A DNA stretch of 41,294 nt from a virus. Positions 1 to 38,846 of this stretch are shown one piece after another. The position numbers were made by a program, and so were the translations under genes. Below the pieces are notes generated by a model. That model saw nothing but the letters and a program-made list of their open reading frames with translations. It searched no databases and had not been told where the DNA came from. Numbering within the stretch: position 1 is the stretch's first letter; each line of letters opens with the position of its first letter. The stretch lies in the UHGV virus genome UHGV-0110231; one strand, 5' to 3'.

Positions 1-53
1 GCGTGGTGTATGACATCAGCGGCAAGCCGCCAGCTACCATTGAGTGGGAATGA
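1..53 (+). CDS. guaA: 3' end of GMP synthase gene (partial; C-terminus ...VVYDISGKPPATIEWE*)
   Basis: In-frame translation ends in the conserved GuaA C-terminal motif PPATIEWE; stop TGA at 51-53 lies inside the att core; gene neighbourhood (yfgI/H/G/F on the other side of the prophage) fits. Confidence 0.6.
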   Translation, partial: VVYDISGKPPATIEWE

Positions 54-55
54 TT
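39..55. repeat. attL core (ATTGAGTGGGAATGATT)
   Basis: Exact 17-bp direct repeat with 38830..38846; overlaps the guaA stop codon. Confidence 0.75.
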
Positions 56-3040: not shown

Positions 3041-3922
3041 TTACATAGATGTTTCGTTTAATTCTTCCCGACGAACGCTGTAAACGTCGGTGGCTTTTGC
3101 CAGCAGTTCGTCATCATCTGAAAGTTTTTGTGCAATGTATTTGTAAGCCTTATCCAGTTCGGAGACAGTGCTGTAATTCATCGCTGCGCTGGTAAAGGCC
3201 ATCAGCATTTCTTCTGGATCACGGCTATCCGCTTTACGCGTTTGCTCATCATGCTTTTTCACTGGTTTAGCGTTGATCAGACTGTTCATTCCCGCAGCAG
3301 TAGTCGTTTGCGGAGTAATGTCTCGCTCAACGCGCGGTGCCGTTTCCTGTAATTCGTCAGGGGTGTAAACACCGAGAAGCACATCAGGAGCGTGCAGGCG
3401 AGCCCATCGTTTCGTGCAAAGATAGGCAAGCTGCTGGCGCGGATCCTGTTCCCACAATGGAGAGTTACGCACTCCGGCTTGCGCCATACTGATGGTAAGC
3501 TCACGGGGTTCTGCTTCTCCTTTAAGAACTGCTGACACAGTTACCGTCAGATTCGGTGATTTATCTGTTTTGCCGTTAACATTCGACCAGTCACCGCTCC
3601 AGCGATAATTCAGGCGTGTCGCCAGCAGGCTGGAAGAGGATACGACCGCGTTTACCAACTGTGCTTCGTAGCCTAACGTTCCGTTTACCACATGCGTTTT
3701 CTGCGCCACGGCGAAAGGGTTCATTCCCCACTGTGCCGCCTGCATGGTCACCGCCAGACAATCGGCAGGTTTGCCTTCAAGATGTTTCGGTACAGTCGCT
3801 TTGCTTTGTGACATCAACTCCGCGAAACGCACCAGTTGATTCATGCCCTCCGGGCTGAAGATTGCCGCAGCAGTACCTACAGTTGCGCCTGGTTGTGATG
3901 TGATTGCGATATCATTGCTCAT
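3041..3922 (-). CDS. RecT/Bet-like single-strand annealing recombinase
   Basis: 293 aa; sits immediately downstream of, and coupled to, the exonuclease gene; RecT-like central region. Confidence 0.6.
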   Translation of the reverse strand: MSNDIAITSQPGATVGTAAAIFSPEGMNQLVRFAELMSQSKATVPKHLEGKPADCLAVTMQAAQWGMNPFAVAQKTHVVNGTLGYEAQLVNAVVSSSSLLATRLNYRWSGDWSNVNGKTDKSPNLTVTVSAVLKGEAEPRELTISMAQAGVRNSPLWEQDPRQQLAYLCTKRWARLHAPDVLLGVYTPDELQETAPRVERDITPQTTTAAGMNSLINAKPVKKHDEQTRKADSRDPEEMLMAFTSAAMNYSTVSELDKAYKYIAQKLSDDDELLAKATDVYSVRREELNETSM

Positions 3923-4740
3923 ACGTACATATCCTGTTTACGTGCCCAGTCAGGGCGTTTAATAATTTCCACGCCGCCCCATTCATCATTGATGCGGCAT
4001 TCGTGATAGGTATTCAGATCCCGGCGGAACAGAGCGTGCCCGGCATCGACATCCGGCGCATCCAGCTCGAACACGCGTACCGGATACCGACCACAATCAA
4101 TGCTTTCGCTCACGGCAAGAAAGAAAAAACCATGCGACTGACCAGTAACCCTCATCGCTCCTTCGCGGTACATTGCGTCCTGCACGTGGTAGCGGAATTC
4201 CTCGATGTGGCGTGCAAAACGATCCATATCTGCAACCTTTTTCACGTCGACGATCACGTTGTGCTCGTTCAGCCATTTGTCTGGACGAATTCGGCACAAC
4301 TCACCAGTCTCTTCATCATTCCAGTACATTGATGCTTCGCAGTAACCAGGTGCTTCCAGCATCCAGCGTGCCGCCGGGTGAGCCATTGCGCTATCACGCA
4401 TCAGCTCCAGTTTCCGCCACTGCTCGGCATCAAGTACCGTAATCCCCATATCCGCTACATCACGAAGAAATGCTTCTTCGTCAGCTTTACCTTGTTTCGT
4501 CCGACGATCGAACTTCGGTGAAACAATGAAGCGTTTGTCGAATTCTCCAGGCTCCAGAAGCAGACAGTGCAATGCGGTTCCCATATCCAGTGCAGACTTT
4601 TTCTCTTCGTCTTCTGGTGCTGCCTGAACCCATTTAAGAAGCGCCGGATTCTTGGCAACCATGTCCAGTTGCGACTTACTCACGCCGTCACCGGCGTGGT
4701 AGTCTTCGTTGCTGATGTCGAAATAAATTCCCGGTTTCAT
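3919..4740 (-). CDS. PD-(D/E)XK recombination exonuclease (YqaJ-like)
   Basis: 273 aa; YqaJ-like N-terminus (FDISNEDYHAGDGVSKSQL) and D...E.K signature (IVDVKK); 4-nt overlap with the annealase gene. Confidence 0.65.
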   Translation of the reverse strand: MKPGIYFDISNEDYHAGDGVSKSQLDMVAKNPALLKWVQAAPEDEEKKSALDMGTALHCLLLEPGEFDKRFIVSPKFDRRTKQGKADEEAFLRDVADMGITVLDAEQWRKLELMRDSAMAHPAARWMLEAPGYCEASMYWNDEETGELCRIRPDKWLNEHNVIVDVKKVADMDRFARHIEEFRYHVQDAMYREGAMRVTGQSHGFFFLAVSESIDCGRYPVRVFELDAPDVDAGHALFRRDLNTYHECRINDEWGGVEIIKRPDWARKQDMYV

Positions 4741-5210: not shown

Positions 5211-5225
5211 TTACCGTTGAGGTAA
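5211..5225. promoter_or_regulatory. Operator-like palindrome (putative PL region)
   Basis: TTACCGTTGAGGTAA; nested in a larger inverted repeat TTACCTC...GAGGTAA. Confidence 0.5.
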
Positions 5226-5272
5226 TAATTATGCGTATTTGGTTTGATGTCAATAGATATGAGTTGAAAAAA

Positions 5273-5287
5273 TTACCTATTAGGTAA
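5273..5287. promoter_or_regulatory. Operator-like palindrome (putative PL region)
   Basis: TTACCTATTAGGTAA, a perfect TTACC-N5-GGTAA. Confidence 0.5.
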
Positions 5288-5300
5288 TAGTATAGGCAAT

Positions 5301-5322
5301 AAAAAAGCCGCCAGAAGGCGGC
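5301..5322 (-). terminator. Rho-independent terminator after the repressor gene
   Basis: Hairpin GCCGCC-agaa-GGCGGC followed by a T-run on the minus strand. Confidence 0.6.
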
Positions 5323-5344
5323 TTACTTACTGAAAAGTATGATT

Positions 5345-5929
5345 TTATTGTTTGTTTTTTTCGTTCTGGTTGATGACAAATTCAATGTAACTTTCGATCT
5401 TTGCTTTCTCGGTTTCGGGTAACAATGCGTAGCGCGAGCGGTCATAGTTGATGGTCGCAGGGTCGTGCGGGTGAATCAGTAATTCATAGCCGTGACGCCC
5501 GAATGCGGATGCAACATTCTCCAGGGTGGAAATGGAAACGCTGACCTCATTGTTTAACAGGCGGCTGATTGTCACCTGGGCGACGCCGGATGCGCGGTGA
5601 AGTTTTCCCTGTGTTGAAAGGTCGCGGCTTTCGCTCATCCAGCGTTCCAGGTTGTGAGCCGCCAGCTGACCAATGTCGCTTGGGCCGACAGGCTGAAAAC
5701 CTTCCTGAGAAAGCGAGCGATCGATATCAAGCCAGTTACGGGGTTTATTGGCGGCAGCTTCAATTTTTCGCGCAACCTGGTCGCCGATAACCTTCTTGCC
5801 AAGAGCCCAGCGGTTTACCAGATTTGCCTGAGTTCCAAGTTTTTCTGCCATCCGCGTCTGAACACCATTGAATTCACGGTCGATCAAGTCGTTGAGATTT
5901 TGCCTGCGGACGTCCTGGATACTTTTCAT
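5345..5929 (-). CDS. Prophage repressor with two HTH (XRE-type) domains and no recognisable S24 peptidase domain
   Basis: 194 aa; N-terminal HTH (MAEKLGTQANLVNRWALGKK) and a second HTH (ASGVAQVTISRLLNNEVSVSISTLENVASAFG); divergent from the cro-like gene across an operator cluster. Confidence 0.7.
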   Translation of the reverse strand: MKSIQDVRRQNLNDLIDREFNGVQTRMAEKLGTQANLVNRWALGKKVIGDQVARKIEAAANKPRNWLDIDRSLSQEGFQPVGPSDIGQLAAHNLERWMSESRDLSTQGKLHRASGVAQVTISRLLNNEVSVSISTLENVASAFGRHGYELLIHPHDPATINYDRSRYALLPETEKAKIESYIEFVINQNEKNKQ

Positions 5930-5984
5930 TTTCTGGAAAATCGCCTCGTATATGAATCAGTAGATGATTCAATTTAAAGCAATA

Positions 5985-5999
5985 TTACCCAACAGGTAA
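5985..5999. promoter_or_regulatory. Operator site 1 in the repressor/cro intergenic region
   Basis: TTACCCAACAGGTAA. Confidence 0.55.
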
Positions 6000-6001
6000 A
6001 T

Positions 6002-6016
6002 GCACCTCATAGGTAA
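6002..6016. promoter_or_regulatory. Operator site 2 (degenerate)
   Basis: GCACCTCATAGGTAA. Confidence 0.4.
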
Positions 6017-6032
6017 CTATCCTTGATTTTTG

Positions 6033-6047
6033 TTACCTTATGGGTGA
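6033..6047. promoter_or_regulatory. Operator site 3, between the putative -35 (TTGATT) and -10 (GAATAT) of a rightward promoter
   Basis: TTACCTTATGGGTGA. Confidence 0.5.
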
Positions 6048-6083
6048 ATATTTATTATCTGAAATAAATATCAGGCAATAGCT

Positions 6084-6314
6084 ATGAGCGATAACGGACA
6101 TTTCGATTTCAAAAAGCACTGGCTTGCACTTACTCCGGATGAGCGTGAAGCCTTCGCACAGGAAGCCGGAACGACGAGTCACTATATCCAGACTCACTTA
6201 ACAGGTAAGCGCAAAATGCCAGGTAAAGTATTGATGAATGGGCTTTTTAAAGCCTGTAAAACAAGACAATGGCTGCGCTCAAAAGCAGAACTGGCATACT
6301 TCTTCTACTCATGA
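6084..6314 (+). CDS. Cro-like HTH regulator
   Basis: 76 aa; first rightward gene after the operators; HTH-like segment EAGTTSHYIQTHLTGKRKMP. Confidence 0.55.
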   Translation: MSDNGHFDFKKHWLALTPDEREAFAQEAGTTSHYIQTHLTGKRKMPGKVLMNGLFKACKTRQWLRSKAELAYFFYS

Positions 6315-14474: not shown

Positions 14475-14672
14475 AATCTCACCTTAAAAAAATGCCCGGC
14501 GAACCGGGCGAACTGGAAGCAATGAGTTATGCCTTCCGTGGCTGTACGGGTTTACAGCATGAAGTCATCGCAATGGCGTCCTGCTGTAAAAAGGGCGGTG
14601 ATAGTCCTTCAAGGGAAACCATCACCGCCAAGCCCATGGAACTTCTGGCATCACGGTCCTTAGGCGTGATTC

Positions 14673-19120: not shown

Positions 19121-19558
19121 ATGATCACCGACAAACTGTTGATGTTCTCCGAAGCACAGGCGGTAACTGATACCGCGGCTTCTACTGACGTAATCGATCT
19201 AGGTCCAATTGATGGAAATCGTCGCGATATCGGCGTGGGTTACCCGCTTGAGTTTTGGGCGCTGGTTAACGAAGCCGCCACGGCAAGTGGTGAGGCAACT
19301 GTAAACATCCAGTTGCAGACGAGTGAGAATAACAGCTCATGGTCCACTATTTATGATAGTGGCGCACTGGCAAAGGCTACCCTGACAGCAGGTAAACGAG
19401 TTGTTTCTGCAAAGGTGCCTGCCGGTGTTCAGCGATATCTGCGTGTTAACTACTCCGTCGCAACTGGCCCACTAACGGCCGGCAAATTCACTGCGGGTAT
19501 TAGTCTGGATGTTGATGCCAATACACCGTACCCGATCCGCTCAAAAGTAACTGGTTAA
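19121..19558 (+). CDS. Putative capsid decoration/stabilisation protein
   Basis: 145 aa; directly downstream of the capsid gene. Confidence 0.4.
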   Translation: MITDKLLMFSEAQAVTDTAASTDVIDLGPIDGNRRDIGVGYPLEFWALVNEAATASGEATVNIQLQTSENNSSWSTIYDSGALAKATLTAGKRVVSAKVPAGVQRYLRVNYSVATGPLTAGKFTAGISLDVDANTPYPIRSKVTG

Positions 19559-19568
19559 GGTGATTTCG

Positions 19569-19904
19569 ATGTCAGGTGAGAAACCAAGATACCGCGTTCT
19601 GCGCCTCTCTCATATCCATAACACACTGTGGCCGGAGGGGGCAGAAATCGAATACGAAGGTGAGCCTGGTAGCGCACTGGAACCTGTTAACGATGCAGCC
19701 AGACAGGCAAAAGCAAAGGTAGCAGGAAAGGTGACTATGGCAGCAACCAGCACCAAAATCATCAACGATGTGTCAGATGATGGTGAACTGGATAAGCTCC
19801 GTGAAGAGTACGAATTGCTCTTTAACGAGAAGCCACACCATAACGCCAAAGCCGAAACGCTCCGCGAGAAGATCGCAGATAAGCGTAAAGAACTGGGCGT
19901 GTAA
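19569..19904 (+). CDS. Hypothetical structural-module protein
   Basis: AAGGTG Shine-Dalgarno; followed by a terminator. Confidence 0.45.
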   Translation: MSGEKPRYRVLRLSHIHNTLWPEGAEIEYEGEPGSALEPVNDAARQAKAKVAGKVTMAATSTKIINDVSDDGELDKLREEYELLFNEKPHHNAKAETLREKIADKRKELGV

Positions 19905-19920
19905 GCCTCGCGAATCAGAC

Positions 19921-19942
19921 AAGGGGCTTCGGCCCCTTTATT
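19921..19942 (+). terminator. Rho-independent terminator
   Basis: AAGGGGC-ttcg-GCCCCTT followed by TATT. Confidence 0.5.
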
Positions 19943-19954
19943 GCAGGAGTGTAT

Positions 19955-20278
19955 ATGGAACTCGTAAACCTCAAAACCGGCACTGACAGCTACCAGGATG
20001 AGAGCGGAGAAACCAGAACTCGCGATGAATACCCGTGGGGGCTGTGCATCACTCTTAATAATGACACATTGAATAAGCTGAAGGCGCAACCTCAGGGCGT
20101 CGGAACAGAAGTGATGATAACTGCAAGGGCTGTTATTCGAGGCCTGTCTGCCAGAGAAACTGACGATGGTGTTAACCGCAGCGCCGATCTGCAGATCACT
20201 GATATGGCGATCGCTCCTGTTTCCGGGGATGTAGAAAAATCAGCGGCTGAAACCCTGTACGGCAATGGGGGTGAGTAA
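19955..20278 (+). CDS. Hypothetical virion protein
   Basis: AGGAGTG Shine-Dalgarno; coupled to the downstream gene. Confidence 0.45.
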   Translation: MELVNLKTGTDSYQDESGETRTRDEYPWGLCITLNNDTLNKLKAQPQGVGTEVMITARAVIRGLSARETDDGVNRSADLQITDMAIAPVSGDVEKSAAETLYGNGGE

Positions 20279-20883
20279 TGGCCTCTGTAGTAGAGATCTG
20301 CAATCGTGCGCTGTCCAATATTGGCAACAGCCGCAGCATTAACAGCCTGACGGAAGCCAGCAAGGAAGCGGGGGAATGTTCGCTGCACTTTGAGGCCTGC
20401 CGTGATGCTGTGCTTTCTGATTTTGACTGGAACTTTGCTACCAAACGCGTGGCGCTTGCAAATACGAGCAATCCACCGCCTGACTGGGAATATGCGTATC
20501 AGTACCCGTCCGATTGTCTGCGCATTACTGAAATTATGCTTCCTGGTGTACGCAATCCAACAGCAGCAATGCGCGTTCAGTACGAAGTTGGTGCAGACAC
20601 CAACGGAACAGGAAAGTTGATCTACACAGACCAGCCGCAGGCATGGCTCAAGTATGTCTCTCGCGTTTCAGATGTGAACATGTTTGATGCCATTTTTATG
20701 GAGGCGTTGGCCTGGCGTCTTGCGGCAGCTATTAACATGGCGCTGACTGGGAATGCAGACCTCGGTACGTTTGCCCTCAATATGTACAATCTCGTGATTC
20801 TTAGTGCTGGCTCGCATAGCCAGAATGAATCACAGGAACCACAGCCACCGGTTGACGAGTTTACCATTGCGAGGTTGTCCTGA
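20278..20883 (+). CDS. Tail tubular protein A / adaptor (T7 gp11-like)
   Basis: 201 aa; size and position before the large nozzle gene. Confidence 0.5.
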   Translation: MASVVEICNRALSNIGNSRSINSLTEASKEAGECSLHFEACRDAVLSDFDWNFATKRVALANTSNPPPDWEYAYQYPSDCLRITEIMLPGVRNPTAAMRVQYEVGADTNGTGKLIYTDQPQAWLKYVSRVSDVNMFDAIFMEALAWRLAAAINMALTGNADLGTFALNMYNLVILSAGSHSQNESQEPQPPVDEFTIARLS

Positions 20884-31155: not shown

Positions 31156-31164
31156 GGAAGTGTT

Positions 31165-31338
31165 GTGTTTTTAATTATTTTGAGTGTGATAATTTCTGGT
31201 GGGTTGTTATTTATTGACCGCTACAAATATTTTCTTAACCATCAGACTCAAGCTATTTGCTGGTTCATCTTTGTTGTGCAGGGAGTAGTTCTTGTTGCAA
31301 GCCTTATTGAGGGGAGGCCTCTGATTTTTACTGGGTAA
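31165..31338 (+). CDS. Small hydrophobic membrane peptide (57 aa)
   Basis: Not in the ORF track; GTG start 4 nt after an AGGAAG Shine-Dalgarno. Confidence 0.3.
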   Translation: MFLIILSVIISGGLLFIDRYKYFLNHQTQAICWFIFVVQGVVLVASLIEGRPLIFTG

Positions 31339-31350
31339 ATAGGTGACTAC

Positions 31351-31647
31351 ATGCAAGCTATAGGATTCATTGTTTATATCGTCGTTGGTCTTTTTCAGTT
31401 GGCAGTAATTATGGCTGGGCTTGAATCATGGTTTGGATTGCACTGGATAATTGCAGCCCCCATTGCTTTCATCGTTAGCTATATTCCATTTGTTGGAGCG
31501 ATTGTTGGTATGGTTGGCGCTGTGGATGTATGGCGGTGGGAGTGGTGGCAGGCTGGCCTTCTCTTCTTTGGTGGGATCATCTTTGCTATTGTCTGCGGTG
31601 GAATGTCATCATTTTTCGAATGGCTATCATTCAGAAAAAGAACGTGA
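31351..31647 (+). CDS. Polytopic inner-membrane protein; candidate superinfection-exclusion factor
   Basis: 98 aa, roughly three hydrophobic helices; sits where P22 carries sieA. Confidence 0.5.
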   Translation: MQAIGFIVYIVVGLFQLAVIMAGLESWFGLHWIIAAPIAFIVSYIPFVGAIVGMVGAVDVWRWEWWQAGLLFFGGIIFAIVCGGMSSFFEWLSFRKRT

Positions 31648-31655
31648 CATGTCAC
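31644..31655. repeat. Perfect 12-bp palindrome GTGACATGTCAC (copy 3)
   Basis: Overlaps the stop codon of the 31351..31647 gene, in the same register as copy 1. Confidence 0.7.
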
Positions 31656-31679
31656 AGGCCGCTTTCGCGGCCTTTAAAT

Positions 31680-31937
31680 TTACCGGGTTTGTTTTCGTAA
31701 TTGTTCGGCACAATAGTCGAGATGTGTTTGCAGATCCCGCATAGACATCTGTGAGCTGGTGACGTAGTTAATCAGTGCAGTCAGTTCGGCAAGTGGGCCA
31801 TCGACATTAAATCCATCCTTATCGAGATCCCGGAGTAATTTCATCAAGTGCGATCCTTCCACCAGTGACCTGACGCCTCCCGGCGTGTGAATCTTTTCGG
31901 TAAATCCGTCTTCCAGTGGATAGTGATACTGCTGCAT
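31680..31937 (-). CDS. Small protein (85 aa) under a LexA-box promoter; candidate SOS-inducible antirepressor or effector
   Basis: ATG at 31937 with GGAG Shine-Dalgarno; LexA box 20 nt upstream; the longer ORF to 32003 would place the box inside the coding sequence. Confidence 0.5.
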   Translation of the reverse strand: MQQYHYPLEDGFTEKIHTPGGVRSLVEGSHLMKLLRDLDKDGFNVDGPLAELTALINYVTSSQMSMRDLQTHLDYCAEQLRKQTR

Positions 31938-31956
31938 CTTATCTTCTCCATGCAAT

Positions 31957-31976
31957 AACTGTATAAATGTACAGTA
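31957..31976. promoter_or_regulatory. LexA (SOS) box
   Basis: AACTGTATAAATGTACAGTA against consensus TACTGTATATATATACAGTA; CTGT-N8-ACAG intact. Confidence 0.7.
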
Positions 31977-32023
31977 GCAAATAATTTGTTTGCTATCCAG
32001 CACGTTTTGCTAATCACCTGAAA

Positions 32024-32038
32024 GGTAATATCTGTTCG
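32024..32038. promoter_or_regulatory. Operator-like palindrome in the divergent region before the tailspike
   Basis: TCACCTGAAAGGTAA. Confidence 0.45.
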
Positions 32039-38829: not shown

Positions 38830-38846
38830 ATTGAGTGGGAATGATT
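38830..38846. repeat. attR core (ATTGAGTGGGAATGATT)
   Basis: Exact repeat of 39..55. Confidence 0.75.

Follow-up and report, generated by a model that had tools for sequence, protein, structure and literature searches.

The locus lies in a 41,294-nucleotide stretch of viral DNA (UHGV virus genome UHGV-0110231; the whole stretch is called the window here), which is a complete phiV10-like prophage (Uetakevirus, epsilon15-like). Escherichia phage phiV10 is collinear with the window and shares 86 to 98% nucleotide identity with it along most of the sequence. Both prophage ends carry a direct repeat of 17 bp, ATTGAGTGGGAATGATT (positions 39 to 55 and 38830 to 38846), and the same sequence is the attachment core of the sibling phage vB_EcoP_ZX5, located at the 3' end of guaA (PMC9782041). 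The gene under study, rep, occupies positions 5345 to 5929 on the minus strand, starts with an ATG, and is annotated here as encoding a 194-residue immunity repressor on the basis of its identity to phiV10 gp40 and ZX5 ORF21 and its homology to the Rep protein of phage SPC32H. A terminator-like hairpin with a T-run lies just downstream of rep (5305 to 5324, minus strand). A small regulator gene divergent from rep (6084 to 6314, plus strand) is cro-like (PHROG 35; E = 5.6 × 10−13), and replication genes and a recombination operon are the other neighbors of rep. Leftward and rightward promoter-like sites flank rep, and both carry a palindrome, which places the gene in the lambdoid immunity position that a preliminary description of this DNA had given it.

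The phiV10 protein gp40 is 100% identical to Rep, and its GenBank note reads [quoted passage not shown] ORF21 of vB_EcoP_ZX5, annotated as "repressor," is likewise 100% identical, and about a dozen further phage records contain the identical gene. At an identity of at least 95%, rep is present in 537 of 5,426 complete E. coli genomes (about 10%). Overexpression of ZX5 ORF21 lowered endolysin transcripts by 99.99% and holin transcripts by 99.97% and abolished free phage (PMC9782041). RefSeq goes no further than "helix-turn-helix domain-containing protein" in naming rep, and in one phage record the identical gene is called "plasmid maintenance system antidote protein VapI."

A Pfam profile search and an AlphaFold2 model agreed on two helix-turn-helix (HTH)-like modules in Rep, and the residue ranges that had been proposed for them (20 to 45 and 115 to 150) were roughly right. 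The model (mean pLDDT, 80.6) consists of two helical bundles, the first with helices at residues 4 to 19, 24 to 31, 35 to 43, and 50 to 59 (block pLDDT, 86 to 93) and the second with helices at residues 84 to 100, 107 to 114, 118 to 125, 133 to 142, and 147 to 151. Residues 74 to 83 form a low-confidence linker (pLDDT, <50), and a C-terminal helix spans residues 172 to 193. Following the SPC32H Rep literature, we assigned residues 1 to 70 (positions 5720 to 5929, minus strand) as the N-terminal DNA-binding domain, with HTH helices 2 and 3 at about residues 24 to 43 (5801 to 5860, minus strand). The middle HTH_3-like domain, residues 87 to 152 (5474 to 5671, minus strand), has its HTH at residues 107 to 125 (5555 to 5611, minus strand) and is the counterpart of the middle dimerization domain (MDD) of SPC32H Rep. 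The C-terminal tail, residues 153 to 194 (5348 to 5473, minus strand), is the counterpart of the tetramerization and Ant-binding CAD of that protein.

Pfam HTH_3 matched the whole of Rep with 38.5 bits against a cutoff of 23, the best stretch being residues 106 to 147, and HTH_26, LacI, and HTH_31 also matched these residues. Residues 21 to 61 matched YdaS_toxin, which we take to be a member of the HTH clan, with 21 bits, below the Pfam cutoff of 30, and HTH_3 gave a subthreshold 16 bits when residues 1 to 75 were scanned alone. PHROG repressor families cover residues 1 to 76, and PF15943 was matched by 44 of the 46 Rep family members. The two modules are about 12 to 15% identical to each other, and hhalign found a weak in-register HTH alignment between them (local P, 0.002; 25 columns; probability, 13.8%). 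Their third helices are dissimilar, QANLVNRW in the N-terminal module and QVTISRLL in the second, and the second module has a net charge of +3 across its helices 2 and 3. Rep also lacks a Ser/Lys peptidase region, as had been claimed: the Pfam search gave no Peptidase_S24 match in Rep at an E value of ≤1, there was none among 46 Rep relatives at an E value of ≤0.01, and no other C-terminal catalytic domain was found in Rep or in these 46 relatives. About 40 residues remain after the second module, which is too little room for an S24 domain.

The TTACC-N5-GGTAA palindrome named in the preliminary description is real. With at most one mismatch, it occurs 13 times in the window against 0.8 expected, and none of 100 shuffles reached 13. 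To the left of rep, a perfect operator-like palindrome of the OL type, TTACCGTTGAGGTAA (5211 to 5225), abuts the −10 element of the leftward promoter-like site of the early-left operon (TTGACA-17-AATTAT; 10/12; 5225 to 5253, minus strand), and a second perfect palindrome, TTACCTATTAGGTAA (5273 to 5287), lies 62 bp from the first and upstream of the −35 element. The rep/cro intergenic region holds a perfect palindrome, TTACCCAACAGGTAA (5985 to 5999), and, 17 bp from it, a degenerate operator-like site with two mismatches, GCACCTCATAGGTAA (6002 to 6016); at the matching relative position, the SPC32H site is perfect. The next operator-like site, TTACCTTATGGGTGA (6033 to 6047; one mismatch), overlaps the −35 element and spacer of the rightward promoter-like site (6030 to 6058). 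Another operator-like palindrome with one mismatch lies where ant and the tail fiber gene diverge (32014 to 32028), a position kept in phiV10 and SPC32H. The palindrome heads most other transcription units as well, also at positions kept in phiV10 and SPC32H, and is found before terS, the portal operon, the lysis genes, and int, in addition to the ant/tail fiber gap. Pairs are spaced by 62 bp at 5211/5273 and 8316/8378, the latter pair sitting after the replication genes, and by 17 to 18 bp at 5985/6002 and 11927/11945. The epsilon15 genome paper reportedly remarked on such a repeated inverted repeat.

The operator layout and the half-sites recur in 11 relatives with Rep identities as low as 42%; these are phages SPC32H, Klebsiella BUCT711, and Enterobacter Tyrion and eight bacterial genomes (Rep, 46 to 75% identical). 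We looked in the 11 relatives for altered half-sites that would covary with the third helices and found none, all of them keeping TTACC-N5-GGTAA. The half-sites are thus invariant across Rep proteins that have diverged to 42% identity, and the N5 spacers vary between phages.

By its sequence, Rep belongs to the SPC32H/epsilon15/phiV10 Rep family. In a phmmer search, residues 1 to 190 matched SPC32H Rep chain 5D50_A over its full length and collinearly (E = 4 × 10−42), and residues 89 to 190 matched 5D4Z, which is SPC32H Rep 92 to 198 (E = 4 × 10−20). Globally, the two proteins share 42% identity; their N-terminal domains share 54%, their middle domains 33%, and their tails 43%. When the Rep model was used as a Foldseek query, the top 12 matches were all 5D50 or 5D4Z chains, and the C-terminal half of the AlphaFold2 model aligned with 5d4z_H over 99 columns (TM, 0.78; rmsd, 2.8 Å). 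The 5D4Z entry contains 32 chains of Rep 92 to 198, and this fragment crystallized as a homo-oligomer. In the SPC32H study, Rep reportedly stayed uncleaved upon SOS induction and ant was under LexA control; the SPC32N variant, with one base change in the LexA box, is said to be constitutively lytic.

Both entries come from Salmonella phage SPC32H, 5D50 being the Rep-Ant complex and 5D4Z being Rep 92 to 198 (Kim & Ryu 2013 and Kim et al. 2016). In PMC9986798, RepSPC32H is divided into an N-terminal DNA-binding domain, the MDD, and the CAD, which serves tetramer formation and Ant binding. In PMC9638917, SPC32H Rep on DNA is described as a tetramer and its dimers as poor binders (the tetramer is also given in PMC6868357), and it is proposed that the pairs of DNA-binding domains on a palindrome originate from different Rep dimers. 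Tetrameric Ant takes two SPC32H Rep dimers and breaks the Rep tetramer (PMC9638917; PMC6868357). For several Salmonella prophages, PMC7380047, with Kim & Ryu 2013 among its sources, describes an SOS induction whose main outcome is not cleavage of the repressor; LexA self-cleavage allows an antirepressor to be produced, which inhibits the repressor.

The antirepressor gene of the window, ant (31680 to 31937, minus strand), adjoins the tail fiber gene and encodes an 85-residue protein that we assigned by its match to SPC32H Ant (5D50_E, "Anti-repressor protein"; E = 4 × 10−46; 86% identity). The predicted LexA (SOS) box of ant is a perfect CTGT-N8-ACAG (31959 to 31974; read on the ant strand, TACTGTACATTTATACAGT). 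It precedes the ATG by about 21 bp and is kept in phiV10 and SPC32H while the flanking bases vary. Since ant and its predicted LexA box are found alongside rep, the prophage has the two components of the switch together with its SOS input. A second CTGT-N8-ACAG sequence, at 14542 to 14557, is compatible with chance (2 found versus 0.57 expected; 11 of 100 shuffles reach 2), and we did not retain it. Ant has diverged much less from its SPC32H counterpart (86% identity) than Rep has (42%), which raises the prospect of cross-induction.

The features of an SPC32H-type system that we found in the prophage are the sequence and fold of Rep, the absence of S24, ant, the predicted LexA box, and the operator-like layout. 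We consider it very probable that Rep is an SPC32H-type, antirepressor-controlled immunity repressor of this phiV10-like prophage. Its oligomeric state, the domain that touches DNA, the binding of Ant, and the resistance to RecA-stimulated cleavage are predicted from the 42%-identical homologue. By homology, the N-terminal HTH domains would read TTACC-N5-GGTAA as symmetric pairs of identical domains, and the second HTH_3-like module would be a protein-protein dimerization domain. The C-terminal tail would build the tetramer and would double as the docking site for Ant. RecA-stimulated self-cleavage should not inactivate Rep, because there is no S24 peptidase. DNA damage would lead to the inactivation of LexA, which would free the LexA box before ant and allow Ant to be made; Ant would then dock on the C-terminal part of Rep and dismantle its DNA-binding tetramer, and the operators of the early leftward and rightward promoters would be vacated.

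The assignment of DNA reading to the N-terminal module alone is supported by three arguments, from symmetry, from the genealogy of the domains, and from the SPC32H literature. The operator-like site is dyad symmetric, with half-site centers 10 bp apart, and it therefore needs two identical heads on a 2-fold axis. As to genealogy, the cI protein of Pseudomonas phage PseuP_224 has an N-terminal domain to which Rep residues 4 to 68 are 39% identical (E = 1 × 10−12), followed by a C-terminal half that is Peptidase_S24 (79 bits). Given this homology to an S24-bearing cI, the N-terminal module would be the shared DNA-binding cassette. The comparison indicates a swap of C-terminal modules, in which the HTH_3-like domain and the tail together would fill the slot that S24 has in oligomerization and induction.

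The second module scores as HTH_3 and its third helix is fairly conserved (T-[IV]-x-R-[LMIV]-L; conservation of the N-terminal third helix is moderate), so the sequence by itself leaves room for a DNA contact. The middle domain might add contacts of its own, or the Rep tetramer might bridge paired operators and silence nearly every unit of the prophage, with specificity set by N5. Since the half-sites are invariant, immunity specificity would in either case have to come through the N5 spacer. A Pfam HTH_3 match alone is not proof of DNA binding, as the middle domain of the Rep family is described as dimerizing (PMC9986798), and we think that auxiliary contacts or bridging of this kind are unlikely in Rep.

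An immunity repressor that is induced without the small Ant, for example by a Bro-type antirepressor that another prophage supplies in trans or by a host protease, would fit several observations on related phages. In vB_EcoP_ZX5, the name antirepressor is given to a different protein, of the Bro-N type, which lowered lysogeny when overexpressed (PMC9782041). The phiV10 protein p23 is also of the Bro-N type, and there is similarity between its C-terminal tail and N-terminal residues of Ant (40% over 42 residues). Trans-acting antirepressors between Salmonella prophages are documented (PMC7380047). The window, however, contains no Bro-N antirepressor gene, and its ant is intact, 86% identical to that of SPC32H, and provided with a LexA box. 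Induction of Rep that bypasses Ant is accordingly quite improbable in our judgment, and control by the LexA-regulated Ant is the reading we prefer.

The preliminary description had suggested that a single Rep chain could read both half-sites of the palindrome. Each HTH would then take one half-site, and a monomer would fill the whole operator. Both modules are indeed XRE-like, the second passes the Pfam HTH_3 cutoff and carries the +3 charge, and the flexible low-confidence linker at residues 74 to 83 would let both modules reach DNA. However, modules that are about 15% identical and have dissimilar third helices would not, as a tandem pair, read identical inverted half-sites, and the operators are dyad symmetric. 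The N-terminal module is the only one common to Rep and the classical cI protein, and the crystallization of Rep 92 to 198 as a homo-oligomer speaks against the single-chain arrangement as well. For the homologue with a solved structure, dimerization is described as the role of the second module, and DNA binding is assigned to N-terminal pairs in a tetramer (PMC9986798, PMC9638917, and PMC6868357). With symmetry, the N-terminal-only cI homology, and the SPC32H literature opposed to it, we regard reading by one polypeptide as very improbable, and the view of the second HTH as a DNA binder gives way to the dimerization role that the literature on the homologue (PMC9986798) assigns to it.

We dismiss, as having next to no probability, a HigA/VapI-type antitoxin or addiction-module regulator, a reading to which the VapI label in one record, weak HigA-type fold matches (E of about 0.2 to 0.3), and the toxin-named family YdaS as the best Pfam match of the N-terminal module could point, but which is contradicted by the gene context (no toxin gene adjacent to rep; an immunity position with flanking operator-like sites), by the best sequence and fold matches, which are to a phage repressor, and by experiments in which the identical ZX5 protein shuts lytic transcription (PMC9782041).

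For annotation, rep can now be named an SPC32H-type immunity repressor, and the VapI antitoxin label is a mislabel; the 85-residue open reading frame by the tail fiber gene can be named a LexA-controlled antirepressor. Earlier records already cover the protein with its two-HTH annotation and its activity as a repressor, and the Rep/Ant/LexA induction circuit is likewise known for this group of phages. The architecture had been called unusual for an immunity repressor at a lambdoid position, which holds relative to lambda CI. It is documented all the same: two HTH motifs already stand in the GenBank note on the phiV10 protein, and genetic and structural studies of the Rep/Ant switch exist for this phage group.

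One of the closest known systems is SPC32H Rep, with which Rep shares the three-part layout, the absence of S24, and the genome position. The two phages also have in common the TTACC-N5-GGTAA half-sites and their spacing, with the 62-bp pair on the left and three sites on the right, as well as the ant gene (86% identity) and the same LexA box. The central spacers of the operators contain G/C in this prophage, whereas they are A/T rich in SPC32H, and the immunity specificity of the two may therefore differ. Phages phiV10 and ZX5 have an identical repressor but, unlike this prophage, carry a Bro-N "anti-immunity" gene beside ant.

Repressors of the lambda CI, P22 C2, and LexA type resemble Rep in role, position, an N-terminal HTH acting on dyad-symmetric operators that overlap divergent early promoters, and SOS-linked induction. 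Rep differs from them in that it has no S24 domain and would oligomerize through the HTH_3-like domain and a short tail, and in that the SOS signal would reach it through a LexA-controlled antirepressor, in contrast to the self-cleavage of the classical repressors. The authors of the SPC32H work are said to have found their Ant structurally distinct from the antirepressors of Gifsy/Fels-2 and from 186 Tum. The logic is nevertheless shared with the Gifsy/Fels-2 prophages and coliphage 186 Tum, where a noncleavable repressor is paired with a small LexA-repressed antirepressor (PMC7380047). Wmk of Wolbachia phage WO likewise has two XRE HTH modules per chain, and the entry for the SPC32H Rep-Ant complex is its best structural template (PMC6736233). 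The two Wmk modules are proposed to work on DNA as a physically linked pair (PMC6736233), whereas dimerization is the role given to the second module in the Rep family.

The palindrome TTACC-N5-GGTAA, copies of which flank the repressor gene rep as OL/OR-type operators, also heads most of the other transcription units of the window. We found these 15-bp sites at nine further positions: at int (189), at the gene 3' of the cro terminator (6370), as a second 62-bp pair 3' of the replication genes (8316 and 8378), at the 5' end of terS (11927 and 11945), at the portal operon (15072), in the divergent region between the antirepressor gene ant and the tail fibre gene (32014), and at the lysis cassette (36802). 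Phage phiV10 and Salmonella phage SPC32H carry the palindrome at positions homologous to these sites. This distribution suggests a regulon of Rep (or Cro) that would span the whole phage and not OL/OR alone.

We compared the operators of the window (5211..6047) with those of loci L002-L004 and L006-L013 from phages and bacterial genomes. The TTACC and GGTAA half-sites were unchanged in all 12 Rep loci compared, with Rep identity as low as 42%. The central 5 bp of the operators vary among phages, being A/T-rich in SPC32H and G/C-containing in the window.

The prophage is complete, at about 38.8 kb, and is bounded by the 17-bp direct repeat ATTGAGTGGGAATGATT as attL (39..55) and attR (38830..38846); in vB_EcoP_ZX5, an identical attachment core, located at the 3' end of guaA, has been described (PMC9782041). 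The database names of the repressor gene are misleading or uninformative: an identical gene in phage record PP488543.1 is called "plasmid maintenance system antidote protein VapI," and RefSeq E. coli genomes call it "helix-turn-helix domain-containing protein" and nothing more. A second CTGT-N8-ACAG match, CTGTACGGGTTTACAG (14542..14557), lies in the region collinear with the phiV10 packaging and structural genes; its occurrence is consistent with chance (two matches found versus 0.57 expected in the window).

In the recET region (3419..3645 and 3919..4740), the window diverges from phiV10; the phiV10 annotation has one RecE-RecT fusion, whereas a separate 273-amino-acid PDDEXK/DUF3799 exonuclease ORF was called in the window. 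The window also lacks phiV10 p22 and p23 (19338..20543 of phiV10), the latter encoding the Bro-N "anti-immunity protein." In their place are about 520 bp (31158..31680) containing a hydrophobic 98-amino-acid ORF (31351..31647, plus strand), whose sole match was a faint one to a holin family (E = 0.03). When p23 (19646..20230 of phiV10) was searched against the window, its C-terminal residues 141 to 180 were similar to the N-terminal part of Ant (31842..31967), with 40% identity over 42 amino acids (E = 9e-4). Bro-type antirepressors of phiV10-like phages may contain an Ant-like Rep-binding segment.

Between the window and SPC32H, Ant (31680..31937) is 86% identical, whereas identity is as low as 42% for Rep (5345..5929) and 43% for the Ant-binding tail of Rep. 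With Ant kept far better than Rep, this asymmetric conservation might enable epsilon15-like prophages to cross-induce one another.
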